Below, one piece after another: positions 28,438-64,000 of a DNA stretch of 64,000 nt. The position numbers and the translations under genes are program-made. Origin of the DNA: Candidatus Daviesbacteria bacterium (GTDB lineage: Bacteria > Patescibacteriota > Microgenomatia > Daviesbacterales > UBA10151). The DNA is taken from assembly GCA_016186955.1 (NCBI GenBank), contig JACPKP010000003.1:2290-66289 (forward strand), written 5' to 3'. Within the stretch, counting starts at the first letter, position 1. The number at the start of each line of letters is the position of its first letter. The notes beneath the pieces are model-generated. The model was given only the letters and a program-made list of their open reading frames with translations. It made no database searches and was not told the origin of the DNA.

Positions 28438-30549
28438 ATGTCAAATCTATTCAAATCACTTAAAGATACCAAAATTCAACTGCTTATCATCCTCGCTCTG
28501 ACTTTTTTGGTTTATGCCAATTCATTGCCAAATAAGCTGCTTTGGGATGACCATTTATTTTTAGAACAGTGGCCGCAGGTACAAAGTTTTAAGAACCTGG
28601 GAGAGGTCCTTAAAGGCTCTGCGCCTCCTTCACAAGGCAAGATCTACAGGCCCTTGCGGGGGGTGTTTTATATGATTGATTACCGGCTCTTTGGGGCAAA
28701 CCCATTTGGGTATAGGGTCCAGGCTGTTTTAATCCACCTTATCAGCACACTTTTAGTCTATTTTATAGTTAGAGAAATTTTGACAAAACATTTCACCCCG
28801 GGGGTGAAAAATTTGAGATTACACCCCCGGGGTGGGGGATATTTACCTTTCATCACAGCCCTTCTCTTTGGCCTGCATCCCATCCACACCGAAACCATTG
28901 ATTATATCTCAACCAGTATGGAAAGTTTTGGGACGGTGTTTTTCTTTTTGAGCTTCTGGCTGTATTTATTGGCTCAAAAGTACACCCTGAAAGTACAAAA
29001 CCGGAGTGAGAATGCATGGTTGTATTTAGCTTCCGTAACCAGCGCTGCCCTGGCTTTTTTTACCTATGAGATGACGCTGACTTTGCCCATCCTGATAGTG
29101 CTGTATGAGCTAACCTTGGGTCAATTTCAAATTTCTAATTTCAAATTTCTAATTAAGATATTGCCTTACTTTGTGGCAGCTATAATCTTTGTGGTTATCA
29201 GGTTCAGCGTGCTTGGTTTAATCTCTAGGACAGATTACCTGGGTTATAGCTTTTACCTGACCCAGCTTACCATGGTGAAGGTTTTTGTGCGCTACATTGG
29301 GCTTTTACTTTTTCCGATTAACCAGACTGCCATCCACAACCTGGTGGGGGATTTTCCCTCCTCAATGATCCCTTATGATAAACTTGAACCTGTTTTAAAC
29401 CAGACCATCTTTGATAAAGATGTCTTGCTTGCTATATCAGTGGTACTGGGGCTGATTTTGGCAGCAGTTAAATATATCAGAAAATATCCAATTGTATCAT
29501 TTTCAATTTTATGGTTTTTCATAAGCCTGTTGCCTGTCTCTTATATCATTCCGCACGGCGGAGCCATGGCAGAAAAGTACCTGTATATCCCATCATTTGG
29601 ATTTGTACTAATAATCGGCTTCCTTATAGTTCAAAGTGCAAAACTTAAAGTGCAAAATTATAATTTAAAGCTAAAAAGTTCTAAGTTTTACACTATAGTT
29701 TTTACCTTTACACTTTTACTTCTAATTTCCTACTCCGTACTAACCATTCAAAGAAATACTGTTTGGAAGGATGACATTTCGCTTTTTTCCGACGTAGTTA
29801 AAAAATCACCGGAAAACCTGTTGGCAAACTACAATTTGGGCATCTGGTTTGGCAACTTTAACAAGCTTGAGGAAGCCGCAGCCCATTACCAGATAGCAAT
29901 TGATAAAGCCCCTGATTTTTTGGAGGCAAGGTATAACCTTGGGAATATTTACGCACGGGTTGCGCAATTTGAAAATGCTACAGCGCAGTACACGTATATT
30001 TTAAATATTAACCCCGGCCATAAACAAAGCCAAAATATTTTAAATAACATGGTTCTTTTAAAAACAGCATCTCCTTCAGCCCTGCTTAATTCCCCAAACC
30101 TGATGGTAGGTTTTACAACTAAAAATGGGTTGCAGTTTTCTTTCCCTGCCTTCTGGTCTAAGGGTGAGTTAAGGAAGGCAGTTTCAGAAAAAGAGACCAA
30201 AACAGGAAAAACTACACCTGTTAGCGATGAGGCTGTCGGCACCAGCCTTGAGTCTCCTGACGGGTTCAAAATCCAAATTATTGAAGACAGTTTGGGGAAA
30301 AAGAATATGGAGGAATATATAAATGGCCAAAAAGAGACCCATGGTAAGCTGGTAAACCAGGGGTTGGCCCAAATCCCGAATGCAGAGGGTGCTTTTGTTA
30401 AGGTTTGGGAAGGGGATGGTGTAACAAAACTCCAGTTCTTTCTTTTTATAAAGAAAAAAGTAATCCAGATAATAGCCTATCCGGCCGGTTTACCTTCAAT
30501 GCCGATTTTTGATGCCTTTTTAGGGTCTTTGAAGCTACATGACACATAA
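28438..30549 (+). CDS. TMTC-like (DUF1736) GT-C glycosyltransferase with C-terminal TPR repeats and conserved C-terminal 'YPA' module (paralog A)
   Basis: N-terminal 'LLIILALTFLVYANSLPNKLLWDDHLFLEQW' (loop-1 acidic motif of GT-C O-mannosyltransferase-like enzymes) and ~11 TM helices. TPRs ('YNLGIWFGNFNKLEEAAAHYQIAIDKAPDF...'). C-terminal 'KLQFFLFIKKKVIQIIAYPAGLPSM'. In-frame palindromic element at 28794-28834 and heptamer repeat at 29118-29150. Confidence 0.65.
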   Translation: MSNLFKSLKDTKIQLLIILALTFLVYANSLPNKLLWDDHLFLEQWPQVQSFKNLGEVLKGSAPPSQGKIYRPLRGVFYMIDYRLFGANPFGYRVQAVLIHLISTLLVYFIVREILTKHFTPGVKNLRLHPRGGGYLPFITALLFGLHPIHTETIDYISTSMESFGTVFFFLSFWLYLLAQKYTLKVQNRSENAWLYLASVTSAALAFFTYEMTLTLPILIVLYELTLGQFQISNFKFLIKILPYFVAAIIFVVIRFSVLGLISRTDYLGYSFYLTQLTMVKVFVRYIGLLLFPINQTAIHNLVGDFPSSMIPYDKLEPVLNQTIFDKDVLLAISVVLGLILAAVKYIRKYPIVSFSILWFFISLLPVSYIIPHGGAMAEKYLYIPSFGFVLIIGFLIVQSAKLKVQNYNLKLKSSKFYTIVFTFTLLLLISYSVLTIQRNTVWKDDISLFSDVVKKSPENLLANYNLGIWFGNFNKLEEAAAHYQIAIDKAPDFLEARYNLGNIYARVAQFENATAQYTYILNINPGHKQSQNILNNMVLLKTASPSALLNSPNLMVGFTTKNGLQFSFPAFWSKGELRKAVSEKETKTGKTTPVSDEAVGTSLESPDGFKIQIIEDSLGKKNMEEYINGQKETHGKLVNQGLAQIPNAEGAFVKVWEGDGVTKLQFFLFIKKKVIQIIAYPAGLPSMPIFDAFLGSLKLHDT
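28794..28834. repeat. GC-rich palindromic mini-element (caccccgggggtg - N15 - cacccccggggtg), in-frame
   Basis: Encodes 'TPGVKNLRLHPRGG'. Homologous copies at 44436-44476 and 53125-53165, with partial copies at 39030-39050 and 25178-25204. Confidence 0.65.
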
Positions 30550-32662
30550 AATATTCAAGTTTTATCCGATGGTTATACTTTTGACCCTGCTGGTTATCTT
30601 TTTTGGAAAAGCCTTAACAGGCCAGGAAATTTTTGTCACACCGGATATTGGCGGGAGTGATATTTTGCACTATGAGTATGCGACAAAATACTTTTTATCG
30701 GAGTCGTTGAAAAAACACCAATTACCTTTGTGGAACCCGTATATCGCAACAGGTTTCCCGCAAATGGGTACGATAACAGGGGATTTTAACCCGGTTAACT
30801 TATTACTTTTTTATTTTTTGCCAATGCCTTTGGTGTTTAACCTTTACTTAGCTTTGACCTTCTTTTTGACAGGGTTTTTTACTTACCTTTTTGCCAGGTC
30901 TTTAAAAATTTCCCGGTTGGGCAGCCTGCTTTGCTCAATTTCCATCACATTCTCCGGCATTTTGGTTACAAAAATTGTCCATTCAATCATGTTACAAACT
31001 TTTACTTTTTTCCCGCTTGAGCTTTATTTTGTTGAAAAGTATTTACAAAAAAAAAGATTATTCTTCATTTTATGCCTATCTTTGGCAATCGGGCTCCAAA
31101 TCTTATCAGGCTATTTACAGATAGTACTTTACTGCCTGATCATTCTTCTGCTGTATTTTGGTTTAAGGTTGTACTTGGAACAAGCGCTCCGCTTAAAGAG
31201 TATGTGTATTATTTTTGCTGCAATCATAATAGGTTTTATCATTGCTTCTGTCCAGCTTCTGCCCAACCTGGAGTTCACAGGGCTTTCTACCCGCTCCGGC
31301 GGAGTGGACATAGAAGTTGTTGAAAAACTTCCTTACCCGCTGCAGCACCTGGTTACGTTTATATGGCCGTATCTTTTAGGTGATCCGCGCAGCGGGACAT
31401 ACCCCTGGTATTCAGAGAATTGGGGAATTTTTTGGGAAAACACCGGTTATATTGGTATTTTACCTTTGATCCTGGCTTTTTTGGCTGTATTTTGGGGCTT
31501 GAAAAAGAATTCCAATGTGGTGATTTTTTTTCTGATTATCACATTTACTTTTTTCTTAATGCTTGGTAAATATTCCCCTGTTTTTTTCCTCTATAACATC
31601 CCGCCCCTGTCTTTTTTTAGGGTCCCGGCCAGATGGATAATATTTTTTACATTCGGGTTGGTCATTCTCGCCGGTTTTGGTTTTGACCAATTTTTTAAAA
31701 AATCCGCCATCGGAAAACACCGCAAGAGCATAATACCAATGGTTATTTTAGCCTTAATAGTGTTAAATTTATTTGCTTTTTCATTCTTTTATAATCCCAG
31801 AGGCGATGCTTTAACCTGGCTTAATGAACCTGAAACAGTAAAGTTTTTAAAAACGGATCTATCGGATTATAGGATTATATCTTTTGGGACTCCTGTCTTA
31901 TGGAACAAACAATTACAGAGTAAGGGTTGGGATACCAAAGCCGATGGATTTAAAGCCTTTTTACAAGGTCTGGAGCCAAACTGGAATGTTGTATATAGGA
32001 TTAACCATGCCGGTCTTTATGCTGTTATCCAGACCCAGAGGGGGAGTACCTTAAATTCAGCTTTAAAACGGAATATTGGCGGACAGGCAAGGGATTTGCT
32101 GGATTTGGAAAATGTTAAATACATAATTTCTCCCCTGCCTGTTGACGGCAGGGATTTAGAGTTGGTATTTACATCAAGCAGCCAGCCTAAATATTATATA
32201 TACCAAAATAAAACAGTGTCAGCCAGGGTTTTTTTAGTTTCAAATTGGGTGCTTATCCCTGACCAGACAGGGCAGTACCAGGCTTTAATGGCAGGGGATG
32301 TTAATTTCAAGAAAACTGCAATCGTTGAGCAGGAAATTCCAAATTTAGGATTTAAGAATGGAGAAGCAAAAATACTTAAGCACGGTAACAATAACGTAGA
32401 GGTTGCAGCCAACTTAGACGGTGACGGGTTGCTGGTTTTGGCAGATTCCTATTATCCGGGATGGAGAGCAACAGTGGACGGTGTTGAAACAAAAATACTG
32501 CCGGTCAATATCAACCAAAGAGGGGTATTATTAAGAACAGGGGAGCATATTGTTAAATTTAAGTTTCAGCCTGAAAGCCTTAAGTGGGGAATTATAATAA
32601 GTGCCCTGTCTTTACTGATAGTTACATCTTTAGTCGTGTTTTTTAAGAAAAAAGATTTATAA
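30539..32662 (+). CDS. YfhO-family polytopic membrane protein (GT-C-type glycosyltransferase family)
   Basis: 707 aa, many TM helices. The C-terminal 'LVLADSYYPGWRATVDGVETKILPVNINQRGVLLRTGEHIVKFKFQP' matches the characteristic YfhO C-terminal beta-region (Y.GW.A.V.G......N..F.G). Confidence 0.6.
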   Translation: MTHKIFKFYPMVILLTLLVIFFGKALTGQEIFVTPDIGGSDILHYEYATKYFLSESLKKHQLPLWNPYIATGFPQMGTITGDFNPVNLLLFYFLPMPLVFNLYLALTFFLTGFFTYLFARSLKISRLGSLLCSISITFSGILVTKIVHSIMLQTFTFFPLELYFVEKYLQKKRLFFILCLSLAIGLQILSGYLQIVLYCLIILLLYFGLRLYLEQALRLKSMCIIFAAIIIGFIIASVQLLPNLEFTGLSTRSGGVDIEVVEKLPYPLQHLVTFIWPYLLGDPRSGTYPWYSENWGIFWENTGYIGILPLILAFLAVFWGLKKNSNVVIFFLIITFTFFLMLGKYSPVFFLYNIPPLSFFRVPARWIIFFTFGLVILAGFGFDQFFKKSAIGKHRKSIIPMVILALIVLNLFAFSFFYNPRGDALTWLNEPETVKFLKTDLSDYRIISFGTPVLWNKQLQSKGWDTKADGFKAFLQGLEPNWNVVYRINHAGLYAVIQTQRGSTLNSALKRNIGGQARDLLDLENVKYIISPLPVDGRDLELVFTSSSQPKYYIYQNKTVSARVFLVSNWVLIPDQTGQYQALMAGDVNFKKTAIVEQEIPNLGFKNGEAKILKHGNNNVEVAANLDGDGLLVLADSYYPGWRATVDGVETKILPVNINQRGVLLRTGEHIVKFKFQPESLKWGIIISALSLLIVTSLVVFFKKKDL

Positions 32663-32664
32663 CC

Positions 32665-34813
32665 ATGAAGTATTTTCGGTCGACGAAAGTTCAGATATTA
32701 ATAATAATTTTAGCTACTTTTTTAGCTTATTTAAACATCTTCCAAAATGGGTTTGTGGTAGATGATGAGGATTTCATAGTTAACTGGAAAGAAAAGCAGG
32801 AGATCACAAACGTTCCCCTGATGTTGAAGGGTAATAATCCACCTAAGTTTGGAGGGATATATAGGCCTATTAGAGGAGTATTGTACACATTTTATGATCA
32901 AATATTCGGTGCTAACCCTTTTGGTTACCACCTCCACTCAATCCTGGTCCACCTAGGGGTAACTGTTTTGGTTTACTTTATAACCAGGCAGCTTATACAG
33001 GGTTTAGGGTCTAGGGGTTGGGGTTTAGGGTTGGAAGTTAAAACTAAAAAAAATTCAACTATACCCTATACCCTACCCCAAAGGGGTAAGCTCCGCTTAT
33101 ACCCTATACCCTTTATTTCTGCCCTGCTTTTTGGCCTGCACCCTATCCATACTGACCGGGGTCTTTTTTATGCTTGCAGCGCTCCATCTTTATTTAATTG
33201 AGAAAAAAATGTATTCATATATTTTTGCAATTCTTGCCTTCTTTAGCTATGAACCTGCGTTAGTTTTAATACCCCTGCTGGTTACTTACGACGTGTTAAT
33301 TAAAAAAATACCATTAAGGGAAACGCTTAGTAACATTAAAAAATATTTGCCGTATCTGCTGGCAGGGTTAAGCTTTATTTTTATCAGGCTGGTATTAATT
33401 GGGCGGAACCCTGCGCATTTTAAATATTTAGCAGACAGCTTTTACCATACCCAGCTTATAATGACGAAGGTTTTTGTCAAATATTTAAGCCTGCTTATAG
33501 CCCCGTTTAATTTATCCTTAAACCACATCATAGACCCTGACTTTGAAACTTTTAACCCGCCTGTTAATGATTTTAAGTCATTTACCTCCCAGTCAATCCT
33601 TGACCCCTGGGTTATTACCTCAATTTTAATCATAGCCACCCTGATATTTATAACAATAAAATTTAGAAATAAGCTGCCTCTGGTTTCATTTGGGCTGGCC
33701 TGGATTTTTATATCTTTCCTGCCTTATGCCAATTTAGTTCCACAGCCTACCCCGCTTGCAGAAAGATACCTATATATAGCATCATTTGGCTTTTGTTTAT
33801 TACTGGGATACCTTTTAGTGGAAATTTCAAATTTCAAATTTCAAATTTCAAATTATTTTCTTTTTACTCTTTTCTTTTTACTCTTTTCTTTTTACTTCTA
33901 CCAGACTTACCAAAGGAACAAAGACTGGAAGGAGAAAGGCAGCCTTTGGCAGAGAGCTTTAGTTTATTACCCAAACAGCGCTTTCGCAAGTTATATTATG
34001 GCTAGGGTGAACCAGGAAAAAGGCAACCTGCCGGAAGCTATAAAATTTTACAACCAGACTGCAAATCTCCAACCAGGCTATGTAACTGCATATCTGGAAT
34101 TGGGTAGGCTTTACCACAAAAACAACCAGCTGGATAAGGCGTTAGAGGTACTAGTCAAAGCTACACAGCTTGAGCTTGAGCCGATAGATGAAAACAGGTT
34201 GGATGCATCTATCGGAGAGCTGGCAAAAGTTTACACTGAGATAGGATTTATCTACCGGGAGAAAAAAAAGTTTAAAGAGGCCTACACTAACTTTGAACAG
34301 GCGCTATCGTTATATTCAGGATACTTGCCTGCAAAGGTAAGCATTGAAACTCTGTTAAAAGATCATCCTGAGCTAAACGAACTGGCTAAAATTTACTCAA
34401 TGGAGAATTGGACAGAATATCATTCAAAATCCGGGCTGTCTTTTCAGTACCCCAAAATATGGGATATTAGTGAAAATGATGGGCAAATTCATATTTTTAC
34501 AAAAGATAAAAGCGCTAATATTGAGATAATTGTTGATGGGTTTTCTACATCAAAAGAAGAATATCTTAAAAATCAGACAGATATGCATGGAATGTTGGTA
34601 AACCAACGGTATACCAGGCTGCCTAATGCTGATAATGTTTATGCCAAGATTTGGAACGATCCTACGCCGGAAAGCACCGGAAGTGGAGTCCCGAAGCTGC
34701 AATTTTATGTTTTCAAACCCAAAAATGTCATTAAGTTATTCGTTTACCCAGCTGAAATTTCCTTGAAGGTAGTTTTAGACAGTCTAATGCGGAGCTTAAA
34801 GTTAACAATTTAA
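32665..34813 (+). pseudogene. TMTC-like GT-C/TPR glycosyltransferase paralog split by +1 frameshift next to a ~170-bp palindromic element (fragments 32665-33201 and 33131-34813)
   Basis: The N-terminal fragment ends right after the element-encoded '...LYPIPFISALLFGLHPIHT'. The C-terminal fragment resumes at 'TGVFFMLAALHLYL', so ~15 aa of the conserved core (ETIDYISTSMESFG in paralog A) are missing and the frame changes. The C-terminal part retains TPRs and the 'KLQFYVFKPKNVIKLFVYPAE' module. Confidence 0.5.
32985..33152. repeat. ~170-bp G/T-rich palindromic insertion element (copy 1)
   Basis: 'cagcttatacagggtttagggtctaggggttggggtttagggttggaagttaaaactaaaaaaaattcaactataccctataccctaccccaaaggggtaagctccgcttataccctataccc...ccatact'. 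Nearly identical to 35163-35330. Arms 'ggggttggggtttagggt' / 'accctataccctacccc' are partly complementary. Confidence 0.7.
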
Positions 34814-34829: not shown

Positions 34830-36912
34830 ATGGAGACAAAATTCAAATTTCTGAAACAAACCAAAATTCAGGTTTTAATCATTGTTTTGCTAACCCTTTT
34901 GGCTTACTCCAACATCTTTCAGAATGAATTTGCTGTTGATGACCTTTATCTGATCGTCAAATGGGAGAGGATACATAACTTATCAATTATCCCGGAGCTT
35001 TTTGTAAAGGATACGTTGGAAACAGGCTATACAGGTTACAGGCCTCTGCGTACAACAATCATCGCTATTCTTTACAATATTTTCAGGGAAAATACATTCG
35101 GCTATCATTTGTATTCAATTCTGGTGCATCTTAGTTCAACTCTTTTAGTCTATTTTTTAGCCAGACAGCTTATACAGGGTTTAGGGTTTAGGGGTTGGGG
35201 TTTAGGGTTGGAAGTTAAAACTAAAAAAAATTCAACTATACCCTATACCCTACCCCAAAGGGGTAAGCTCCGCTTATACCCTATACCCTTTATTTCTGCC
35301 CTGCTTTTTGGCCTGCACCCTATCCATACTTAAGCCAAAACTGATGCTTTTGTCCTCAATCCTTCTCGGGGTATTGGCATATTTGACTTTTGAGATCACC
35401 TACATCCTACCGCTGTTGATTTTTGCCGCTGAAATAATTTTATTCCCCGGCAAAATTAAATCCCGGTTAATCAAAGCTTTCAAAATAACACTTCCTTTTA
35501 CCCTGATTGTAGCAATAATTTTTCTCATCAGGTATCAGGTATTATCGCTAGGGGAATTTAAGGTAAATTATTTGGCGGGCAGTTTTTACTTAACTCAGGT
35601 ATTGATGCTGAAAGTACTACTCAAATATCTTCTTCTGCTGATTTATCCTGTGAATTTATCGTTAAACCACGTTATCTCCGGGAATTTTGAAACTTTTCGG
35701 GTGAACATCAATAGTTTTGATTGGTTTATTCATCAATCTATCCTAGAACCACAACCAATACTTGCATTGTTAATTGTTATATCACTAACGCTTTTGGTAT
35801 TTTGGTGCAGAAAGAAAAATCCCCTGGTATCGTTTTCAATAGCATGGTTGTTTATCAGCTTTTTACCTTTTTTTAACCTCATACCCCAGGCAACCGCTCT
35901 TTCGGAAAGGTATCTATATGTTGCCTCGTTTGGGTTCATACTTTTTTTATGCTGCGTATTATTTTATTTACCGAAAAAGTTGGGCTTTTTAATATTGATA
36001 TTGCTGGTAATTTCTTATGGAACCTTAACTTACCGTAGAAATTTTGATTGGAAATATGCATCATCGATTTGGGAGGCGATGTTGAGGGCCTATCCTAAAA
36101 GCGCCCTGGCAAATTATTTCGTAGGAACAATCTTTGAAGAGCGCCGTGAAAATGACGAAGCTATTTACTACTACCAGAGATCTTTAGAACTAAATCCCAA
36201 TATGGATTATGCCTATAATAGCCTGGCCTACCTTTATTTTAAACAAGGCAATTCGGCTCTGGCAAAAAATTTACTTCTACAAGAGTTGAAGATCCAAAAT
36301 AAGATATTAGATCGGAATCAAACGGATGTATTGTTAAATTTATCTGAAAGTTATGCCTTGTTAAGCAAAATAGCGCTAAAAGAAAAAAAATTTGATGAGG
36401 CTTTTGAATATTCTCAAAAAGCAATAACAGTAGATGCCGATAACCAAGATGCCTTTTTAGCGCAGGATTTGATATTGGCTGAGAAGCCGGAGTTCAAAAA
36501 AAATGCAGCCCTTTTCGACCCTAAAGGATGGCAACAGTTTACAAATAAAAATTATGCCTTTGCTTATCCTATAAATTGGTCAGCTGAAGAGAAAGAGGGC
36601 AAAATAGTTTTACATCCGTTTAAAAGACAATATGAAATAACTATAGAGAAAATAGATGGTTTTACAAATTCAGACAAAGATTTGTTTTTGAAATCACAAA
36701 ATCAATCTTTTGGAACCTTGGTTAAAGAAGAATCTGCCAAAGTGCCTGATACGGAGTGGGCATATGCCAGGATATGGAATGACCACGAACAACCCAGGCT
36801 TGAGTTTTATATCAGTAAAAAGGGGATAATCTTCAGGGTAATCGCCTTTCCCTCAACGTTCGCTTTAAAAGAAATATTTGATAAGGTCATACAATCCATA
36901 CAGGTATTTTGA
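34830..36912 (+). pseudogene. TMTC-like GT-C/TPR glycosyltransferase paralog split at the same element (fragments 34830-35333 and 35308-36912)
   Basis: The N-fragment terminates with a TAA immediately after the element ('HPIHT*'). The C-fragment resumes ~50 aa further into the conserved membrane core ('LSSILLGVLAYLTFEITYILPL'). It retains TPRs and the 'RLEFYISKKGIIFRVIAFPST' C-terminal module. Confidence 0.5.
35163..35330. repeat. ~170-bp G/T-rich palindromic insertion element (copy 2)
   Basis: Near-identical to 32985-33152 (single-nucleotide differences only). Confidence 0.7.
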
Positions 36913-50411: not shown

Positions 50412-51101
50412 ATGTTTAAAAAGTTGAAGGTAGTAGCAATTTTACCAGCCTATCAAGCTGAAAAAACACTGTTGCCATTTTTTAAAACCCTGCCAAAAGG
50501 GGTTTTTGATGAAGTTATTTTAGTTGATGATTGCTCATCGGATAAAACTTATGAGATTGCCAAAAAACACCGTGGGATAAAGGCATACCAGAATCCAAAA
50601 AATTTAGGTTATGGGGGGAATGTCAAACAATGTTTGAAAACCGCTTTGAAACATGGGGCGGATGTTATGATTGAAATCCATCCTGATGGTGAATACGGGG
50701 CAGATGGGATTATTCCGGCGCTTTTGGAAATAAAACAAGGGGCAAAATTTGTGCTTGGTAACCGTTTTGCCAAAAACCCCGTATCTTCGGGTATGTTTTT
50801 ATGGAAGTATGTTTTTATAAGGGTGTTAAATTTAATCCATAATTTGATTTTGCGGACAAATATTCCCGATTTACATCAGGGTTTTCGGGTTTATACCCGG
50901 CAGCAATTAAGCAAAGTAAATTTTAAAAAGATGAGTGATGGTTATATTTTTAGTTTTGAAATTATCGTAGAGACAATTTTTAAAAAAATGCATATTTCGA
51001 GCGTTCCTGTCAGTACAAAATACCAGGGCGCCAAAAGAGGGGCTTACTTTAAAAACAGTTTGGTCTATGGTTTACAAACCCTTGCAATTTGCTTAAAATG
51101 A
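50412..51101 (+). CDS. GT2 glycosyltransferase, DPM1-like
   Basis: 'VVAILPAYQAEKTL...VILVDDCSSDKT...IEIHPDGEY'. Confidence 0.65.
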   Translation: MFKKLKVVAILPAYQAEKTLLPFFKTLPKGVFDEVILVDDCSSDKTYEIAKKHRGIKAYQNPKNLGYGGNVKQCLKTALKHGADVMIEIHPDGEYGADGIIPALLEIKQGAKFVLGNRFAKNPVSSGMFLWKYVFIRVLNLIHNLILRTNIPDLHQGFRVYTRQQLSKVNFKKMSDGYIFSFEIIVETIFKKMHISSVPVSTKYQGAKRGAYFKNSLVYGLQTLAICLK

Positions 51102-56627: not shown

Positions 56628-57313
56628 AGAAGATTTCTATAATAATTCCAGCTTTTAATGAAGAAGCGACTATTGAAAATTTATTGCTTAAGGTAATGAA
56701 AGTTGATTTTGGGAAATGGAAAAGTGAAATAATTGTTGTTGATGATGGATCAACTGACAAAACTTCAAAAGTTTTGTCAGAGAGTAAAAGGAAAAGAGAA
56801 AAATTCAAAGTAATAAGGCACAAAAAAAACAGGGGTAAAGGTGCAGCTATACAAACAGGTTTAAAGCATATAAAAGGGGATGCAGTCATAGTCCAGGATG
56901 CAGATTTAGAGTATGACCCAAAAGAAATAAAAAAACTTTTAAAGGAATTAGAAAAAGGAAAGACAGAGATAATTTTTGGGGCAAGGAATGTTAATGTCAG
57001 TAAAAAAGACCAGTTTTTGTATGTTTGGGGAATCAACTTATCCACATTCCTGCTGAATATTTTTTACGGGTCAAACATCACAGATCTTTATACCTGCTAT
57101 AAATTGTATAGGGCAGACCTTTTCCAGGAATACTCAGCCAAAAAAACCGGTTTTGAATGGGATATTGAAATGATAACCGGGCTTTTAAAAAAAGGGTATA
57201 AAATAAGTGAAGTACCCATAAAATACAAACCAAGAAAATTTTCCGAAGGTAAAAAAATCAGGCCCTGGGATGGGATAATCGGGCTTTGGGTGATTATTAA
57301 AAATAGGTTTTAA
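56624..57313 (+). CDS. GT2 glycosyltransferase, DPM1-like
   Basis: 'KISIIIPAFNEEATI...IIVVDDGSTDKT...VIVQDADLEYDP' (DxD = DAD). Confidence 0.7.
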   Translation: MKKISIIIPAFNEEATIENLLLKVMKVDFGKWKSEIIVVDDGSTDKTSKVLSESKRKREKFKVIRHKKNRGKGAAIQTGLKHIKGDAVIVQDADLEYDPKEIKKLLKELEKGKTEIIFGARNVNVSKKDQFLYVWGINLSTFLLNIFYGSNITDLYTCYKLYRADLFQEYSAKKTGFEWDIEMITGLLKKGYKISEVPIKYKPRKFSEGKKIRPWDGIIGLWVIIKNRF

Positions 57314-57319: not shown

Positions 57320-57709
57320 TCAAACATCAAATTTATCCCCGGGGGCAGATGGGGTTTTGACAACAAAAACTTTAGTTCCGGGTGCATTCTCAGGATTTTG
57401 CAGCACAGTTCCGGGTGGAATAACCAGGAACTCATTTTCCTCAAGATTTATTTCCTCTTTTTGGTCAACAATGAGCCTTAATCTGCCGGATAAAACAAAA
57501 GTTACCTCATACATTAGTTTATGATAGTGAGGTTTAGACTCATCAATAACAGGTAATTCCATTATTGCACACTCCAGATCCTCCCTTTGGAGCAGTGGAT
57601 CTTTTAAAAAAGCGCCAATAAAATAACCTTTATTTTTGTCAAAATCCTTTATGTTGCCTTTAAAAAACCTGGGACTTTCCTGCTCTCTTTCCAAATTCTC
57701 AATTGACAT
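57320..57709 (-). CDS. cupin-fold protein (possible NDP-sugar 3,4-ketoisomerase/epimerase, FdtA/WxcM-like)
   Basis: 'KPHYHKLMYEVTFVLSGRLRL...EFLVIPPGTVLQNPEN' is a two-motif cupin signature. Start set at 'MSIENLEREQ' (internal Met), giving divergent spacing to the next gene. The functional assignment is by context. Confidence 0.45.
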   Translation of the reverse strand: MSIENLEREQESPRFFKGNIKDFDKNKGYFIGAFLKDPLLQREDLECAIMELPVIDESKPHYHKLMYEVTFVLSGRLRLIVDQKEEINLEENEFLVIPPGTVLQNPENAPGTKVFVVKTPSAPGDKFDV

Positions 57710-57740
57710 GGCAGGATTATAACATATTATATTATTTGAA

Positions 57741-58547
57741 ATGACAAGTGATGTAAAAGTTTGTGTTATCCCTGCTGCAGGCAAAGGGTCAAGGTGGGCT
57801 CCTGTTTCCGGGTACCTTCCCAAAGAGATGTTGCCTCTTGTAGAGAGGCCGGTTATAGAATGGGTCGTGAGTGAAGCAGCAGCTGGAGGTTTCAAAGAGG
57901 TTATTATTGTGTTGAATAAACAGAAAAATGCGATAAAAAAATATCTGCAAAAAAATGTTGAGGTTAATAAAAAAGTTAAGCTAAGCTTTGTTTATCAGGA
58001 AAAACCTCTGGGGATAGCACATGCGCTGTTTATCTTAAGGCATATAATTGGGGACAGGCCATTTGGGATGGCTTTACCGGATCTGCCAACAATCTCAAGG
58101 AAACCTGTCATTGGGCAACTGGTAAAAGCTTTCCAATCTCTGGGGGGGAAAGCACACATCACATCTTTCAATATTTTTCCGGAAAACTGCAGACATTTTT
58201 ACAGCGAATGTTTGCTGGAGAAATATGAAAAAAAGCAGTTACTAAAATTGATTCATTTTTGTCCGAAAACAAAAAATTCTCAAAAACCCCACCATCCTTT
58301 AAATAAACTCAGGATGTCAGGAAGGTATGTATTTAACCCATCAATTTTCAAAAGTTTAGAAAATTTAATGGAAAATGCGGTAAATAGTGAAATTACTGAT
58401 GTTGACGGGTTAAAGGCTGTCATGAAAGACAACCAGGAGGTGGTTGGTTTTGCCATTGAGGGGCATACCTATGATACCGGCAATCCGGCTAGCTATATCA
58501 GGGCGAATACAGCTTTTTTTAAAAAGAGGCTCGCCAAAAACAGTTGA
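57741..58547 (+). CDS. sugar-1-phosphate nucleotidyltransferase, GalU-like (UTP-glucose-1-phosphate uridylyltransferase family)
   Basis: 'VCVIPAAGKGSRWAPVSGYLPKEMLPLVERPVIEWVVSEAAAGG' closely matches the GalU signature (IPAAGLGTR.LPATK..PKEMLP.VDKP.IQY). Confidence 0.65.
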   Translation: MTSDVKVCVIPAAGKGSRWAPVSGYLPKEMLPLVERPVIEWVVSEAAAGGFKEVIIVLNKQKNAIKKYLQKNVEVNKKVKLSFVYQEKPLGIAHALFILRHIIGDRPFGMALPDLPTISRKPVIGQLVKAFQSLGGKAHITSFNIFPENCRHFYSECLLEKYEKKQLLKLIHFCPKTKNSQKPHHPLNKLRMSGRYVFNPSIFKSLENLMENAVNSEITDVDGLKAVMKDNQEVVGFAIEGHTYDTGNPASYIRANTAFFKKRLAKNS

Positions 58548-58660: not shown

Positions 58661-60178
58661 ATGGAAAAGATCCATGATATTCCGGTGTGTTTCATCATCC
58701 CCCCTTCAACATTCCTGGCTGATGAGCGGGTTTTTCCATTCCTGGGCCCTTTGAAAGTTGCGGCTGAGCTCAAAAAAAACGGCAACAAGGTAGAGGTGTT
58801 GGATTTGTCAGGTTATGGCAACTTTGAGGAGATTGTTGAACAATACGTTAAAGAAACAGATATTAAAAACTTTGCCCTTACTGCCACTACGCCTCAAATC
58901 CCTGCTGCTGCAAAAATAGTCAATAAGTTAAGAGAGGGTGCCCCTGAAGGGAAAATTATTTTAGGCGGGCCGCATACAACCTTAACCTATACAGGCATGA
59001 CGGAAGATCTTAAAGCAGGGAGGCTTTCCAGGGGAACCCTTGCTTACAGGCAGCTTGAGGGTCTTTTTGATAAGTTGGTGGTAGGCGATGGGGAGTTGGC
59101 TATTTTCCGGGCGCTTGATCCAGAATGTAAACTTAAGACCATAGATGCCGGGAATTTAAAATCACCCCTATTCATGCAAAAAGGGACGCTGGAAAATTTT
59201 GAGTTTCCTGCCAGGGATTTGATTGACTTGGATAGTTACCATTATTATATTGACGGCCACAGGGCTTTTTCAGTAATTGCCCAACTCGGTTGTCCTTTTG
59301 AATGTGGCTTTTGCGGTGGTAGGGATTCCCAGGTTTTCCGGGTTGCCCGTTCCAGAAGCATAAACCATGTGATTTCAGAGATAGAGTATGAGGTTGGTAA
59401 ATCCAGGGAGAGAGGAAACCCATATTCAGCAGCCATGTTTTATGATGATGAGTTAAACATCTCGCCAAAAAATCTTGAAAACCTCTGCCAAGAGTTGATT
59501 TTGATGCAAGAACGGCTTGGGGTGGAGATGAGGTTTAGGGGGTTTGTCAAAGCTGAACTTTTTACACCTACCCAGGCAAAACTGATGTATGATGCAGGCT
59601 TCAGGATGCTTTTATCAGGGGTAGAATCAGGGTCAGATGAGATGTTAAAAACTATGAAGAAGCACACTACCTCTTTGATCAACAGCATCTGTTTAAATTA
59701 TGCAAAAGATGCAGGACTTAAATTCAAAGCATTGATGTCTATCGGCCACCCGGGGGAATCCGAAAAAACCGTCCGGGAATCTGTTGATTGGGTCCTAAAA
59801 AATAAACCCGATGATGTGGACTGGACCATCATTACCCAATACCCGGGGTCCCCTTATTTTGATAAGTCTATTTATGATGATCAAGAGCAGGCTTGGGTGT
59901 ATGTTGAAACCAAAACCGGTCATAAACTTTGGAGCAGGGCGATTGACTATACTGTTGAAGCTGAATATTATAAAGGTGTGCCCGGGGATTATACCTCTTA
60001 TGTCTGGACAAAATATTTGAGTTCGGAAAGATTGGTGGAGCTTCGTGATGGGGCAGAACAGGTCACCAGAAATGCCCTCAAACTGCCCCCAATCACTGAA
60101 GCTGCAGTCCTCCAATTTGAGCACTCTATGGGTCAAAATTTACCAAGAAATATTTTGAGAGTGTCAAGTATAGTCTGA
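58661..60178 (+). CDS. B12-binding domain / radical SAM protein (class B radical SAM, putative sugar C-methyltransferase)
   Basis: N-terminal cobalamin-binding Rossmann-like region, then 'AQLGCPFECGFCGG' (CxxxCxxC). Confidence 0.65.
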   Translation: MEKIHDIPVCFIIPPSTFLADERVFPFLGPLKVAAELKKNGNKVEVLDLSGYGNFEEIVEQYVKETDIKNFALTATTPQIPAAAKIVNKLREGAPEGKIILGGPHTTLTYTGMTEDLKAGRLSRGTLAYRQLEGLFDKLVVGDGELAIFRALDPECKLKTIDAGNLKSPLFMQKGTLENFEFPARDLIDLDSYHYYIDGHRAFSVIAQLGCPFECGFCGGRDSQVFRVARSRSINHVISEIEYEVGKSRERGNPYSAAMFYDDELNISPKNLENLCQELILMQERLGVEMRFRGFVKAELFTPTQAKLMYDAGFRMLLSGVESGSDEMLKTMKKHTTSLINSICLNYAKDAGLKFKALMSIGHPGESEKTVRESVDWVLKNKPDDVDWTIITQYPGSPYFDKSIYDDQEQAWVYVETKTGHKLWSRAIDYTVEAEYYKGVPGDYTSYVWTKYLSSERLVELRDGAEQVTRNALKLPPITEAAVLQFEHSMGQNLPRNILRVSSIV

Positions 60179-60313: not shown

Positions 60314-61687
60314 ATGTTTACCAGCCCACGGTTTTCGCAAAGTTTGGATAAAACAGGCTTATCCTTAATATTGCCCTGTTTTAATGAAGCAGGATATCTA
60401 TGGGATTCTTATAAAAAGATAGTTGCAGAATTTCAGAAATATAAAATAGACTACGAAATAATTTTTATTGATGACCAAAGTCAAGACAATACAGTGGAAA
60501 TTATTAAAAAAATTCAAGCCGGAGATAATCGAGTAAAATACAAAATGCATCATAAAAATCAGGGAAGAGGGCAGACTGTTATGGATGGAATCAGGATTGC
60601 AAAAAATGATACGATAGGTTTTTTGGATGCTGATTTGGAGATTTCTGAAAAATATATTAAAATATTCGTTAAAAAATTAGAGGAAGGGTATGACCTTGCA
60701 ATTGCTAAGAGATCATACACAATAAGCGTGCTTGCTTTACATCGGTTGATATTAAGCAAAGGCTACCACTGTTTAGAAAAAATATTGTTAGGGTTACCAT
60801 TTAACGATACACAATCCGGGTATAAATTTTTTATAAGATCTAAAATTAATCCCATACTTACAAAAATTGTTGACAAAAATTGGTTTTGGGATACTGAAAT
60901 AGTAGCCAGAAGTTACTATAATGATTTAAAAATTGTTCAAATACCAGTAATTTTCAAAAGAAGGTTGGATAAAAAATCCACAGTAAAAATTTTTAGCGAT
61001 TCTTGGACAAGTTTTAAAAGTTTATGGCAATTTGGGAAGGAATACAAGTTTCCAGGATTTGTTACTACCAAATTGGTGCTTAGTGTCAAAAATGATATTA
61101 AGGCACTGATAATGACTGTATTAAAGATTATTCTTTTCCCGTTTGCCCAGATGGAAAAACTTACACCCAAAAAAGGCAAGATCTTGGATCTTGGCTGCGG
61201 AGAAGGTACGTTTACTAAATATTTAGCAGAAACTTCTCAAAACAGGCAGGTTATTGGTATAGATTATTCAATAGGTCGTATCAGTAAAGCTAAAATAGGC
61301 GTTATGAATAAGCAAAATATTAAATTTATTCTTGGAGATATACTCAAAATTAGCTACCCAAAATGCGATGCAGTTGTTTTATCCGACACGCTCCACCATT
61401 TTAATCATAAAAACCAGAAATTTATTTTAACAAAATGTTACAAAGCGCTCAGGACAGATGGTATGATTTTAATTCGGGATGTTAACCCTGATGGTAGTCT
61501 AAAGCACCGTTTAAGTAAGTTTTGGGATGATATACTATATCCTGATGCTGAACCTGTTTCTTATTTACCACCCAAAATATGGGTTAATATATTAACTAAA
61601 ATAGGTTTTAATACCTGCTCAACGATCAATGCGAGATCATGGCCCATTATTTCTACAGTTCTGATTACAGCCAAAAAGAGTATTTAA
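60314..61687 (+). CDS. bifunctional GT2 glycosyltransferase / class I SAM methyltransferase fusion
   Basis: N-terminal 'LSLILPCFNEAGYL...IIFIDDQSQDNT...FLDADLE' (GT2). C-terminal 'ILDLGCGEGTFTKYLAE...VVLSDTLHHF' (methyltransferase motifs I and post-I). Confidence 0.65.
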   Translation: MFTSPRFSQSLDKTGLSLILPCFNEAGYLWDSYKKIVAEFQKYKIDYEIIFIDDQSQDNTVEIIKKIQAGDNRVKYKMHHKNQGRGQTVMDGIRIAKNDTIGFLDADLEISEKYIKIFVKKLEEGYDLAIAKRSYTISVLALHRLILSKGYHCLEKILLGLPFNDTQSGYKFFIRSKINPILTKIVDKNWFWDTEIVARSYYNDLKIVQIPVIFKRRLDKKSTVKIFSDSWTSFKSLWQFGKEYKFPGFVTTKLVLSVKNDIKALIMTVLKIILFPFAQMEKLTPKKGKILDLGCGEGTFTKYLAETSQNRQVIGIDYSIGRISKAKIGVMNKQNIKFILGDILKISYPKCDAVVLSDTLHHFNHKNQKFILTKCYKALRTDGMILIRDVNPDGSLKHRLSKFWDDILYPDAEPVSYLPPKIWVNILTKIGFNTCSTINARSWPIISTVLITAKKSI

Positions 61688-61714: not shown

Positions 61715-62260
61715 ATGAAAGCTTTACGGGAAATTGGCATAAAAAAAGCTGTCTATTATTTATTTTTTAAGATATTTGATCTGCTGGTTGATTTATCGCC
61801 TATACCTCAGGTGAGATCTATTTTACTGCAGTTGGCTGGTGTCAAAATAGGCAAGGAAAATGTTATACATGATGTTAGCTTCTTTAACTATTATAAAAAG
61901 GGTTTTTCAACTTTAAAAATTGGGAGCTATTGTTTTATAGGCGACGGAGTGATGATAGACCTGTCAGGAGGTGTAGTATTAGAGAACCATGTGACTTTAT
62001 CAAACAGAGTTTTAGTTTTAACCCATACAAATGTTGGGTATAAAAATCATCCGTTACAAAAGTTTTTTCCAAAATTTACTAAAAAAGTCTTATTTAAAGA
62101 GGGTTGTTATGTAGGAGCAGGAGCCCAGATTATGCCGGGGGTTGTAATTGGCGAGTGTGCTGTTGTAGGGGCAGGAGCTGTAGTAATCAAAAATGTTCAG
62201 TCATGGACTGTGGTAGGTGGCATACCAGCCAAAAAAATTCGGAAAATAATTCGAGCATGA
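61715..62260 (+). CDS. hexapeptide-repeat (left-handed beta-helix) acetyltransferase
   Basis: 'GCYVGAGAQIMPGVVIGECAVVGAGAVVIKNV' hexapeptide repeats. WbbJ/FdtC-like context. Confidence 0.65.
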   Translation: MKALREIGIKKAVYYLFFKIFDLLVDLSPIPQVRSILLQLAGVKIGKENVIHDVSFFNYYKKGFSTLKIGSYCFIGDGVMIDLSGGVVLENHVTLSNRVLVLTHTNVGYKNHPLQKFFPKFTKKVLFKEGCYVGAGAQIMPGVVIGECAVVGAGAVVIKNVQSWTVVGGIPAKKIRKIIRA

Positions 62261-63429
62261 ATAGAAAGGATACATTTCTGGTATTTGGTAAACCTCACTT
62301 CAACCAGGATGAAATTGATGAAATCATAGATACTATAAAATCCGGGTGGTGGGGTACCGGACCTAAAACAGAAAAATTTGAATGGTTATTTAAAGAGTAT
62401 ATTGGTAGTAAATATTCATTGGCAGTAAATTCAGCAACTTCAGGCTTATTTTTAGCGCTTAAGGTATTAGGAATTTCAGAAGGTGATGAGGTTATTACTA
62501 CACCTTTGACTTTTTGTTCAACAGCCAACGTTATTCTCCATCTGGGAGCAAAACCGGTGTTTGCAGATATTGAAAGCGATTCATGGAATATAGATCCTAT
62601 CCAAATTGAAAAAAAAATAACTAAAAAAACCAAAGCCATATTACCAGTTCACTTGCATGGCAGGCCCTGTAAAATGGACCAGATCCGGGCAATTGCAAAA
62701 AAGCATAAGCTATATGTGGTTGAAGATGCTGCGCATGCTACTGAAGCCTGGTTTAAAAAAAAGAAGATTGGTAATATTTCCGATATTACGGTTTTTTCCT
62801 TCTATGTAACTAAAAATATCGCCACGGGAGAGGGAGGGATGGTAACAACGAACAATCGCAAATGGATAGAAAAAATGAGAGTTTTAAGCCTTCATGGTTT
62901 ATCCAGAGATGCTTATAAAAGATATTCAGTTAAGGAGTACGTAAATTATGAATGTATGTATCCTGGCTATAAGTTTAATATGACTGATTTAACCGCCTCA
63001 CTTGGTATACATCAACTGAGCAGGGTTAAAAAAAATTTTAAAATAAGAGGTCAGTTATGGGATTTGTATAATAAAGAGTTTGAGGATTGCCCTCTATTGA
63101 GTGTTCCGAAAAATGAAGATAATGATACTGTGCATGCGCGTCATATATATGCTATTTTATTAAAACTTGAGCTGATAAAAGTGAGTAGGGATAAATGTAT
63201 TAGTTTGTTAATTAGGGAAAAAATCGGAAGCGGTGTGCATTTTACACCCGTACACCTACACCACTATTACAAAAAAACTTTTGGGTATAGAAAGGGAGAT
63301 TATCCCAATGCAGAATTTATTGGCGAAAGGGTCATATCACTTCCGTTTGGAGCTAACTTAAAAGTTAAAGACATAAAGAGGGTTGCAGAAACTGTTAAAA
63401 AATTGCTTCATCAAAACTCAATACAATAA
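62257..63429 (+). CDS. DegT/DnrJ/EryC1/StrS-family PLP-dependent sugar aminotransferase
   Basis: 'FLVFGKPHFNQDEIDEIIDTIKSGWWGTGPKTEKFEWLFKEYIGSKYSLAVNSATSGLFLAL...' and 'SFYVTKNIATGEGGMV' (PLP-Lys region). Start at the internal Met, 4-nt overlap with the acetyltransferase. Confidence 0.75.
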   Translation: MNRKDTFLVFGKPHFNQDEIDEIIDTIKSGWWGTGPKTEKFEWLFKEYIGSKYSLAVNSATSGLFLALKVLGISEGDEVITTPLTFCSTANVILHLGAKPVFADIESDSWNIDPIQIEKKITKKTKAILPVHLHGRPCKMDQIRAIAKKHKLYVVEDAAHATEAWFKKKKIGNISDITVFSFYVTKNIATGEGGMVTTNNRKWIEKMRVLSLHGLSRDAYKRYSVKEYVNYECMYPGYKFNMTDLTASLGIHQLSRVKKNFKIRGQLWDLYNKEFEDCPLLSVPKNEDNDTVHARHIYAILLKLELIKVSRDKCISLLIREKIGSGVHFTPVHLHHYYKKTFGYRKGDYPNAEFIGERVISLPFGANLKVKDIKRVAETVKKLLHQNSIQ

Positions 63430-63431: not shown

Positions 63432-64000
63432 ATGATAAAATCGGGAAACTTCATTTTTAGTACAAAACTACAGCTACTCCTTATTGCTTTTTTAACAACT
63501 TTAGCTTATTCCAGTTTTTTCCAAAACGGGTTTATCGGGGATGATGAGAAATTTATGATGATTTGGGCGGAGATTAGGCATATTGAAAATATTCCCAGGT
63601 TTTTTTTAGGGTTTGGGTATGGAGGAGATGAGGCCAATAACACCCGCTACCTGCCTGTTGGGAATACATATTTGGCTATTATGTACCAGCTTTGGGGTAC
63701 TAATCCTTTGGGGTACCATTTTGCTAACCTGTTGGTTCATATAATGAGTGCTGTAGCTGTATACTTCATAGCCAGAGAAATAGTGATGAGTGTATGGTTT
63801 AAGACAAAAAACAATTTAGGTATAAATCTGGTGCCCTTTCTTACATCCCTTCTTTTTGCAATCCATCCCGTACAAACAGAAACAGTCAATTTTGTTTTTT
63901 TATCAAGAATTATTTTAGGTTTTATGTTTTATTTTTTTTCTTTTTTATTTTTTTTAAAAATTAATACAAAATTTAACCTAAATCTCTATCTTCTATCATT
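63432..64000 (+). CDS. TMTC-like GT-C glycosyltransferase paralog (5' partial, runs off window)
   Basis: 'LQLLLIAFLTTLAYSSFFQNGFIGDDEKFMMIW...YLPVGNTYLAIMYQLWGTNPLGYHFANLLVHIMSAVAVYFIAREI...' matches the paralog family. No stop codon before the window end. Confidence 0.55.
   Translation, partial: MIKSGNFIFSTKLQLLLIAFLTTLAYSSFFQNGFIGDDEKFMMIWAEIRHIENIPRFFLGFGYGGDEANNTRYLPVGNTYLAIMYQLWGTNPLGYHFANLLVHIMSAVAVYFIAREIVMSVWFKTKNNLGINLVPFLTSLLFAIHPVQTETVNFVFLSRIILGFMFYFFSFLFFLKINTKFNLNLYLLS

Follow-up and report, generated by a model that had tools for sequence, protein, structure and literature searches.

Why does one bacterium keep ten related membrane glycosyltransferases side by side, and what do they glycosylate? 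The question is raised by 64,000 nucleotides of a groundwater Candidatus Daviesbacteria genome (candidate phyla radiation (CPR), Microgenomates; contig JACPKP010000003.1, positions 2,290 to 66,289), called the window below. The strain is also present in the groundwater sequencing runs SRR12113383, SRR12113420, SRR12113424 and SRR12113430. A block of ∼40 kb combines these ten enzymes, which belong to the glycosyltransferase fold C (GT-C) class, with candidate donor-synthesis enzymes. We consider it about 85% probable that the block encodes a system for glycosylation outside the cytoplasm, fed by lipid-linked sugars and served by many specialised GT-C transferases. That surface proteins are its acceptors we rate as an even bet. 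A first-pass annotation of the window had proposed extracytoplasmic protein O-glycosylation. The lipid-sugar glycosylation block holds up on motifs, gene content and adjacent family 2 glycosyltransferases (GT2s), and a protein acceptor is plausible.

Domain calls were made by Pfam and NCBIfam searches, and folds and sequences were compared with the PDB and by Foldseek. The ten copies lie in tandem on the + strand, as had been described, and share 24–43% pairwise identity over 400–700 aa. A hidden Markov model (HMM) of their transmembrane (TM) domain matched relatives from other genomes at E values of 1e-100 to 1e-159. These identities and matches make the family genuine and not a product of chance.

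Paralog 1 (28438..30549, 703 aa) consists of an 11-TM GT-C domain, tetratricopeptide repeats (TPRs) and a PsbP-like C-terminal domain, as detected with the TM-HMM, a C-terminal HMM and TPR Pfam models; its alignment shows the invariant DD, YRP, HP.H.E and E(K/R)YLY. The same three parts were found in paralog 4 (38673..40484, 603 aa), paralog 6 (43852..45822, 656 aa; 646 aa in the NCBI call, P0110), paralog 8 (52498..54783, 761 aa) and paralog 9 (54780..56627, 615 aa), the last being the protein that was modelled and matching a Candidatus Daviesbacteria protein in NCBI at 100% identity. Paralogs 4 and 9 form a distinct subfamily (A), and paralog 4 keeps its Lys-Glu motif as 'AKE'. Paralog 5 (40489..42468, 659 aa) scored 695 bits with the TM-HMM; its TPR region and C-terminus are degenerate, with no Pfam match at E≤0.01. 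Paralog 7 (45834..47471, 545 aa) has TPRs and lacks the PsbP-like domain. Paralog 2 (32665..34813) is read as two open reading frames (ORFs), 32665-33201 and 33131-34813, and ends in TPRs and a PsbP-like domain. Paralog 3 (34830..36912) is also read as two ORFs in the window, 34830-35333 and 35308-36912, and is intact in independent assemblies. Paralog 10 (63432..64000) is cut by the window end after its N-terminal 189 aa, seen in translation. On an independent contig (L033, 4196-6166), it is complete at 656 aa with a TPR + PsbP-like end. The 322,873-bp parent contig carries one more paralog, the eleventh (P0114), at a different site.

The paralogs have a multi-pass membrane GT-C fold. The predicted layout of ∼11 TMs followed by C-terminal TPRs agrees with the model helices, which give an 11-TM GT-C domain, and with the TPR Pfam matches. 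The loop-1 motif 'LAYSN.F.N.F..DD' is present with both Asp invariant. Loss of this Asp pair had been named in advance as counter-evidence; the pair is kept in loop 1 as D34/D35. When the seven complete paralogs were aligned, D34, D35, Y74, P76, P135, E139, E190, R233, P330 and E345 were invariant. D34-D35 lies in the first external loop (EL), Y74/P76 belong to YRP, P135/E139 to HP.H.E, and E345 to ERYLY. Across 68 family members, six of these residues (D34, D35, P76, E139, E190 and R233) show conservation of 90% or more. The DD pair is also present in paralogs 2, 3 and 10.

TMTC1-4 are metazoan protein O-mannosyltransferases for cadherins, and full-length homologues in uncharacterised prokaryotes have already been noted (PMC7801869). 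Their motifs M1–M7 read DD, SHKSYRP, RxD, KE(T/Q)xxT, DW, PxxP and ERxxY, with M1, M2, M4 and M7 assigned to catalysis, metal binding and Dol-P-Man binding (Eisenhaber et al., PMC7801869). The paralog motifs are colinear with these four. M1 and M7 (ER/EK-Y/F-x-Y/F) are present, M2 is present as YRP only, and M6 is partial. M3 keeps its acidic residue and not the Arg. In M4 the Glu is invariant, and the Lys occurs only in paralogs 4 and 9.

The DUF1736 label given to these proteins by the first-pass annotation did not survive: Pfam PF08409 was undetected in the seven TM domains searched alone, even at E≤10. By Pfam, the paralogs cannot be classified as TMTCs. The family profile matched DUF1736-bearing bacterial proteins at E values of 1e-28 to 1e-43. 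This places the window proteins among the homologues of the TMTC-type group, though their own EL4 has drifted from the Pfam model. They do not classify as PMT (GT39) proteins: PMT_2 reached 16.8–18.4 bits vs the cutoff of 26.1, and no MIR match was found. Fold matches of the modelled paralog include ALG3, GPI-mannosyltransferase I and AftA, to which Foldseek adds PglB. Homologues named 'protein O-mannosyl-transferase' in JGI carry that name by automatic annotation.

In paralogs 2 and 3, the frame is broken directly after a common, near-identical 165-nt segment. Two independent assemblies from the same population (L036 and L038) contain 95 extra nt after window position 35330, encoding ...HPIHTEAITFIVASIDTTGEMFLF..., which restore one ORF in paralog 3. 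Because both assemblies encode one uninterrupted, normal-looking protein, the split at 35330/35331 is an assembly artefact of the deposited metagenome-assembled genome (MAG) scaffold. Pseudogenisation of paralog 3 was rejected on the basis of these 95 nt. The break in paralog 2 (33153/33154) directly follows HPIHT, where a 114-nt palindromic insertion that paralog 3 also carries comes to its end, and independent contigs end at the repeat near this junction. It is probably the same junction and the same scaffold gap.

Palindromic elements of three lengths lie in frame in the paralogs. Those of 45–48 nt are at 28792-28839 (48 nt, paralog 1), 44434-44478 and 53122-53166; those of 111 nt at 40843-40953 (paralog 5), 46179-46289 and 52873-52983; and those of 114 nt at 32998-33111 (paralog 2) and 35175-35288 (paralog 3). 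Paralog 8 holds two, 52873-52983 and 53122-53166. The two shorter families have 58–68% GC vs 33–40% locally, and the 114-nt family has 45%. All are near-perfect palindromes with predicted hairpins of −29 to −57 kcal/mol; the loop peptides that they encode include TPGVKKMQLHPRG and YVARGPAAAVSRRVSSVVPLPAGTRRDPSAASPLAT. Their lengths are all multiples of 3, and each of them falls in a predicted cytoplasmic loop, distant from the active face. They resemble the palindromic elements of Rickettsia. Similar elements occur in a 684-aa membrane protein and in a giant repeat protein upstream. AT-rich short tandem motifs (AATTTCAAATTTCAAATT and relatives; families D13, D15 and D17) were also observed, both between genes and in frame, at positions including 23640-23692, 29116-29154, 33816-33854 and 53796-53857. 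Where in frame, they are translated into peptides such as 'NFKFQISNF', which several paralogs carry between TM10 and TM11.

Could most of the paralogs be non-catalytic, either as membrane proteins of GT-C origin that act as TPR scaffolds or chaperones, or as decaying duplicates? Two of them are split in the window, GC-rich palindromes have entered several coding sequences, and most copies do not conserve the KE Lys and the EL4 acidic residue. However, at least one split is an artefact, and the insertions preserve the frame in loops that the inferred topology places away from catalysis. The paralogs have diverged deeply, yet the DD pair, E139, E190, R233 and E345 do not vary among them, and orthologues are conserved across genera. 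We regard loss of catalysis as a very improbable explanation.

In paralogs 1, 2, 3, 4, 6, 8, 9 and 10, the 1–4 TPRs are followed by a conserved, C-terminal beta-rich domain of ∼130 aa, on which the first-pass annotation is silent. It forms a beta-sandwich in the model, and Foldseek aligned it with spinach and tobacco PsbP and with CyanoP (prob 1.00, TMt 0.45–0.58). Because sequence matches are weak (PsbP_2, E 0.007; PsbP, E 0.13), this is a PsbP/Mog1-type fold resemblance and not Pfam family membership. The domain is rare: a profile of it, run against 1.84 billion representatives, found only 157 clusters, of which 111 scored E≤1e-10, and nearly all matches lie at the extreme C-terminus of proteins of 580–820 aa. 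In Candidatus Gottesmanbacteria (L007, 5628-8195), a TMEM260-like GT-C protein (PF11028, 3.1e-13) carries the same TPR + PsbP-like module and adjoins a TMTC-like paralog. The module is thus common to two catalytic scaffolds, TMTC-like and TMEM260-like. Human TMEM260 is presented in PMC10214176 as a protein-specific, domain-specific O-mannosyltransferase. Going by TMTC topology, the TPR/C-terminal end of the paralogs would be extracytoplasmic, and the external TPR + PsbP-like module may be the part that selects the acceptor. The PsbP-like accessory domain is previously undescribed. Our literature search found nothing on it or on CPR arrays, and nothing beyond PMC7801869 on bacterial TPR-GT-C function, DUF1736 or CPR O-mannosyltransferases.

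Three DPM1-like GT2s had been claimed as donor enzymes. At the class level the label is defensible for two of them and weaker for the third. The best-supported polyprenyl-phosphate-sugar synthase is the short GT2 at 56624..57313 (+), whose start lies inside the stop codon of paralog 9. Its PDB matches are P. furiosus Dol-P-Man synthase (5mlz, 6.9e-18), ArnC (1.5e-16) and GtrB (1.6e-15), and its NCBIfam matches are AglJ (3e-32), PgfS and ArnC. A second short, DPM1-like enzyme at 50412..51101 (+) matched Pfam GT2 and NCBIfam AglJ and PpgS; its sole PDB match is 5mlz (2.8e-7). The third candidate, at 48845..49570 (+), is a short Pfam GT2 with a C-terminal hydrophobic tail. Its best NCBIfam matches (AglJ, Dol-P-hexose transferase and PpgS) are all far under the cutoffs, and it had no PDB match at 1e-4. 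A GT2 fused to an S-adenosylmethionine (SAM) methyltransferase was called by Pfam at 60314..61687 (+), with NCBIfam matches to PgfS (7e-24) and ArnC (8e-14) under the cutoffs. Similar GT2s adjoin paralog arrays in other Microgenomates loci. The DPM1/ArnC/GtrB-like GT2s are adjacent to the paralogs and translationally coupled, and from this context the paralogs would use polyprenyl-phosphate-linked sugar donors. The paralogs are probably active enzymes.

Other GT-C enzymes are found beside the paralogs. As had been annotated, a YfhO-family and a PMT_2/ArnT-like enzyme are present by Pfam. The YfhO-family membrane protein (30539..32662, +, 707 aa) scored 43.5 bits vs the cutoff of 28.5, with only the C-terminal part of the model matched, and had weak NCBIfam matches to S. 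mutans PgfM2 and PgfM1. The PMT_2 (ArnT/PMT-like) enzyme (42442..43827, −, 461 aa) matched at 5.1e-11, 43.5 bits vs 26.1. A PMT_2-like GT-C at 51089..52528 (+, 479 aa; 19.4 bits, under the cutoff) belongs to a second expanded family of ∼480 aa that ends in the Cys-rich motif CLWNR..CHK..GYD. Two more copies of it, with one methyltransferase gene, lie beyond the window on L033, at 6167-7612 (carrying PF13231) and 8330-9769 (without a recorded Pfam match). Homologues of this second family also adjoin TPR-GT-C arrays in other Microgenomates (L002, L004, L010 and L013). Altogether, the window and the next 5.7 kb contain 15 GT-C-type genes.

Between position 28438 and the end of the window, the + strand carries nearly all genes, the only two on the minus strand being the PMT_2 gene at 42442-43827 and a cupin gene at 57320-57895. 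Start and stop codons overlap between many neighbours, which suggests co-translation. The genes are tightly packed, and no gap in the block is big enough for a further gene.

The block also encodes a sugar-tailoring set. The carbamoyltransferase (36919..38676, +, NodU/CmcH type, 585 aa) matched Carbam_trans_N (2.7e-37) and Carbam_trans_C (7.7e-54) and is syntenic in a related locus, L005. A C-methyltransferase-type enzyme for NDP-sugars (47495..48733, +, 412 aa) matched Methyltransf_14 (1.3e-52) and Methyltransf_13 (1.1e-21). It is followed by a SAM methyltransferase (49425..50411, +; Methyltransf_23, 2.4e-22) whose true start is probably near 49590. The minus-strand Cupin_2 protein (57320..57895) probably has a true product of ∼126 aa; its PDB matches were generic cupins and a mannose-6-P isomerase-like cupin only, with none of the FdtA type. 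The NTP transferase at 57741..58547 (+) is UTP-glucose-1-phosphate uridylyltransferase-like, its PDB matches being YngB (4.4e-31), GalU (3e-30 to 7e-29) and RmlA at only ∼1e-8. A B12-binding radical-SAM enzyme (58661..60178, +) was called from Pfam Radical_SAM and B12-binding. A hexapeptide-repeat (sugar N-)acetyltransferase (61715..62260, +; Pfam Hexapep) matched the N-acetyltransferase 7s43 and the WxcM-like 4mzu. The DegT-family sugar aminotransferase (62257..63429, +; DegT, 2.2e-123) is closest to ArnB (8.6e-77), followed by QdtB (3.6e-52) and PglE (1.4e-37).

For these enzymes, Pfam and NCBIfam bore out the domains of the first-pass annotation: carbamoyltransferase, C-methyltransferase, two further methyltransferase domains, B12/radical-SAM, cupin, NTP-transferase, hexapeptide acetyltransferase and DegT. 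The route to which it likened them, the Fdt route to a 3-acetamido-3,6-dideoxyhexose, finds no specific support: the nucleotidyltransferase is UGPase-like and not RmlA-like, the cupin lacks an FdtA match, and the aminotransferase is nearer to ArnB than to QdtB. Fdt/Qdt was rejected as the specific sugar route; the acetyltransferase (WxcM-like 4mzu) alone fits it. The data agree at least equally well with a UDP-linked 4-amino sugar that is N-acetylated and then receives methyl or carbamoyl groups. No 4,6-dehydratase had been seen in the window, and none was found in the 5.7 kb beyond it either.

We propose the following scheme. In the cytoplasm, UDP-sugars would be made and tailored by the UGPase-like enzyme, the ArnB-like aminotransferase, the N-acetyltransferase, the methyltransferases, the B12-radical-SAM enzyme and the carbamoyltransferase. 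The short DPM1/ArnC/GtrB-like GT2s would put single sugars on polyprenyl phosphate, and a flippase would move the lipid-sugar across the membrane. At the outer face, at least ten TMTC-like GT-C enzymes, with those of the YfhO and PMT_2 types, would transfer the sugar to cell-surface acceptors. Each TMTC-like enzyme would use its 11-TM catalytic domain, with the loop-1 Asp-Asp and a donor/metal site of HP.H.E, (K)E and ERxxY, together with external TPRs and mostly a PsbP-like domain. Judging from TMTC, TMEM260, PMT and Pgf, the acceptors would most likely be folded, beta-rich surface proteins.

Several results weigh against this scheme. Neither DUF1736 nor PMT_2 scores above its Pfam threshold in the paralogs. 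All five subfamily-B paralogs in the alignment have another residue in place of the KE Lys, as do paralogs 2, 3 and 10 by their raw sequences, and the EL4 acidic residue (DW/DY, M5) is not conserved. Genes for a 4,6-dehydratase and for a UDP-glucose dehydrogenase/decarboxylase were not found, which leaves the sugar pathway incomplete within the window. A flippase gene, of the GtrA type or any other, is also missing from the window: of the three-component system (GT2, GtrA-type flippase and GT-C), it contains the GT2 and GT-C parts and no GtrA-like gene. The sole spare ORF among the tightly packed genes (23091-23456, 121 aa), in the gap that follows the exosortase gene, looks soluble, and its product may be one of the four-helix-bundle proteins that 23S rRNA intervening sequences often encode. 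The flippase may be encoded elsewhere in the genome. We know of no bacterial TPR-GT-C enzyme with a known acceptor. TPR domains also serve polysaccharide export machines, so that the TPRs are no proof of a protein acceptor.

Related loci were sought with an alignment of five closer paralogs. Arrays of 3–6 copies were found in Curtissbacteria (L002), other Daviesbacteria (L003 and L004), L005, L012 and Bacteroidales (L019), the members of the last being more distant. Eight of the loci (L005, L006, L008-L010 and L012-L014) were deposited as MAGs of 'uncultured Gammaproteobacteria' or a 'Methanosarcinales archaeon', yet they are syntenic with the Daviesbacteria window. Their protein matches are very strong, especially in L005, and these bins are probably mislabelled or contaminated. 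In a rough neighbour-joining tree, the window paralogs lie on long branches, and paralogs 1, 5 and 8 are each closer to an orthologue from another genome than to the other window copies. We conclude that the expansion is old and that each copy has been kept separately, which argues for functional specialisation. The orthogroups are older than the Daviesbacteria/Curtissbacteria divergence. Since they are old and separately conserved, the paralogs most likely divide the work by acceptor or linkage and do not serve dosage. The earlier suggestion that specificity is divided among many GT-C enzymes fits these orthogroups.

Upstream of the array, a giant gene (10973..21937, +) encodes a 3654-aa fusion of two helix-turn-helix (HTH) domains, a TM segment, a processive GT2, repeats and a C-terminal TM/basic tail, as determined by Pfam and a repeat census. 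Its Pfam matches are HTH_28/23 (transposase-type), Glyco_tranf_2_3 + Glyco_trans_2_3 at aa 352-661 and a weak Kelch_1. The ∼37 repeats of ∼58 aa follow 'STVYKSTLNSTTGD.G.FATTSQ.QLP....G.STY.YVLGG'. They had been put at ∼40% Ser/Thr; the corrected value is 26–30% Ser+Thr per 200-aa window of the repeat region. The AF2 model of the repeats shows four strands per repeat at a pLDDT of 64.5, and all Foldseek hits are beta-propellers with low TM-scores; its input alignment was mis-registered by MAFFT, which aligned overlapping windows by identity. On this moderate-confidence model, we read the repeats as four-strand, propeller-type blades and no more than that. The C-terminus has a hydrophobic segment and a basic tail, ...IPENLLGFLPLGLLLPKLMKKFRRQKD, which may act as a sorting signal.

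Directly after the giant gene lies an exosortase/archaeosortase-family gene (22417..23115, +; TIGR04178, 38.8 bits vs the cutoff of 23; syntenic in L005), and the giant protein is therefore probably processed and surface-anchored. A fusion of HTH, processive GT2, propeller repeats and TM/basic tail with a dedicated exosortase is an unusual architecture. A 684-aa multi-pass membrane protein (23507-25561) has a large C-terminal domain, lacks any Pfam or NCBIfam match and contains three palindromic insertions; it was considered as a possible further GT-C enzyme, and in L005 it also lies between the exosortase and DUF5122/PKD genes. The window's secreted DUF5122 (delta-60) beta-propeller + PKD protein (25919..28372, +; DUF5122 2.2e-59 in six stretches, PKD_4) is syntenic in L005. 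That locus keeps the order of giant repeats, exosortase, 684-aa membrane protein, DUF5122/PKD, paralogs and carbamoyltransferase. The window also encodes a PEGA protein, at 3422-4606.

This neighbourhood bears on the idea that the array is dedicated to O-glycosylating the giant protein and/or the DUF5122/PKD protein, with the paralogs split by site. The giant is encoded immediately upstream, its many repeats have a conserved Ser/Thr-rich strand ('STVYKSTLNSTTGD..FATTSQ'), and the protein is exported, with its own exosortase as the probable anchoring enzyme. The gene order from giant to carbamoyltransferase is kept in L005, which carries little weight because L005 is a close relative. In contrast, another Daviesbacteria locus of 22 kb (L003) has Metallophos-NDK-sortase-PEGA followed by 4–5 paralogs and a GT2, with no giant/exosortase module, and the module is also absent in L011, where S1-RadA-PIN lie beside a paralog. 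The link between array and giant is therefore local and not a family property. The repeats would be folded blades and not a mucin-like tract, and the paralog orthogroups predate the Daviesbacteria/Curtissbacteria split. The first-pass annotation had called the giant the 'obvious substrate'; it is a non-mucin HTH + GT2 + propeller-repeat fusion whose module is missing beside other Microgenomates arrays. This lack of conserved linkage weakens the claim, and we consider a dedicated array in this organism unlikely.

The array might also decorate an envelope glycopolymer, teichoic-acid-like or an exopolysaccharide, possibly the product of the giant's processive GT2. In that case, the paralogs would differ in the side-chain sugar or linkage that each attaches on the outer side of the membrane. 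Precedents are CsbB-GtcA-YfhO on teichoic acids, GtrABC on O-antigen, ArnC/ArnT on lipid A and Emb/Aft on arabinogalactan. The YfhO- and ArnT/PMT_2-type GT-Cs in the same block fit such a role, as does a nucleotidyltransferase closest to B. subtilis YngB, the enzyme that provides the UDP-glucose used to glycosylate teichoic acids. ArnB is the nearest match of the aminotransferase, the GT2s match ArnC, and carbamoyl-, methyl- and acetyltransferases are typical glycan decorators. The paralog fold is equally similar to glycan-building GT-Cs, and the giant protein does hold a processive GT2. Nevertheless, neither L003 nor L011 has that GT2 module next to its array, and no GtrA/GtcA flippase was found in the window. 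The sole characterised GT-C proteins with C-terminal TPRs, the TMTCs, act on proteins (PMC7801869), and the TPR + PsbP-like module also occurs on a TMEM260-like GT-C, whose human counterpart is described as protein-specific (PMC10214176). We hold glycopolymer decoration, the main rival, to be possible rather than probable.

Within the preferred reading of a lipid-sugar-dependent system, a bolder version can be framed. The paralogs would be a bacterial counterpart of animal TMTC/TMEM260 'domain-specific' O-glycosylation, with one class of beta-rich surface domain per orthogroup. We think this version unlikely. If true, targets such as the propeller blades of giant exosortase-anchored proteins, DUF5122/PKD and PEGA would receive a tailored sugar on a defined strand. 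The result would be a combinatorial surface glyco-code in ultra-small CPR cells, at a cost of several percent of the genome.

The parent CPR genome is probably ∼1 Mb, and such organisms are thought to live attached to other cells. Fifteen GT-C-type genes are a striking investment in surface glycosylation for so small a genome. The locus is a compact, testable set: at least ten diverged paralogs with intact catalytic motifs, probable lipid-sugar synthases adjacent and candidate acceptors near. Identification of the acceptor would give bacterial TMTC-like enzymes a first function and inform substrate choice by TPR-GT-C enzymes. We see the locus as a promising starting point for experiments; in principle it is no surprise.

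Compared with TMTC1-4, the paralogs share an N-terminal 11-TM GT-C domain followed by TPRs, which in the paralogs would likewise be extracytoplasmic, and they show the loop-1 DD, YRP, HP.H.E, the (K)E of EL3 and the ERxxY of EL5 in the same order. Unlike TMTCs, they have no detectable DUF1736 and no EL4 DW, and most copies have lost the KE Lys. They carry 1–4 TPRs, whereas TMTCs carry 8–12. They also have an extra PsbP-like C-terminal domain, occur in at least ten tandem copies and probably use a bacterial polyprenyl-P-sugar donor. The PMT family (yeast Pmt4, Pmt1-Pmt2 and actinobacterial PMT) has a MIR domain, where the paralogs have TPRs and the PsbP-like domain instead. TMEM260 is linked through the Gottesmanbacteria relative with the same C-terminal module; no TMEM260-like protein was found in the window itself.

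Protein O-glycosylation by a GT2 and GT-C enzymes has a Gram-positive precedent in S. mutans Pgf (the GT2 PgfS, the YfhO-like GT-C enzymes PgfM1 and PgfM2, and PgfE), in which, as outlined in PMC5856776 and PMC12041528, a GtrB-type GT2 loads a lipid-linked sugar and a GT-C enzyme moves it to surface proteins outside the membrane. The window GT2s weakly match PgfS, and the YfhO protein weakly matches PgfM2/PgfM1, although all these matches are far under the equivalog cutoffs. Pgf has two GT-C enzymes vs fifteen here, its acceptors are disordered Ser/Thr-rich regions, and it lacks TPR/PsbP modules. The Arn, Gtr and CsbB-GtcA-YfhO systems resemble the block in its ArnB-like aminotransferase, ArnC/GtrB-like GT2s and ArnT/PMT_2- and YfhO-type GT-Cs. 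They differ in that the window lacks ArnA, ArnD, ArnE/F and GtrA/GtcA and has an acetyltransferase in place of the formyltransferase. A CPR bacterium such as Daviesbacteria is not expected to make lipid A. By architecture and motifs, the paralogs are closest to TMTC1-4; by logic, the block is closest to the three-component Pgf, Gtr and Arn systems.

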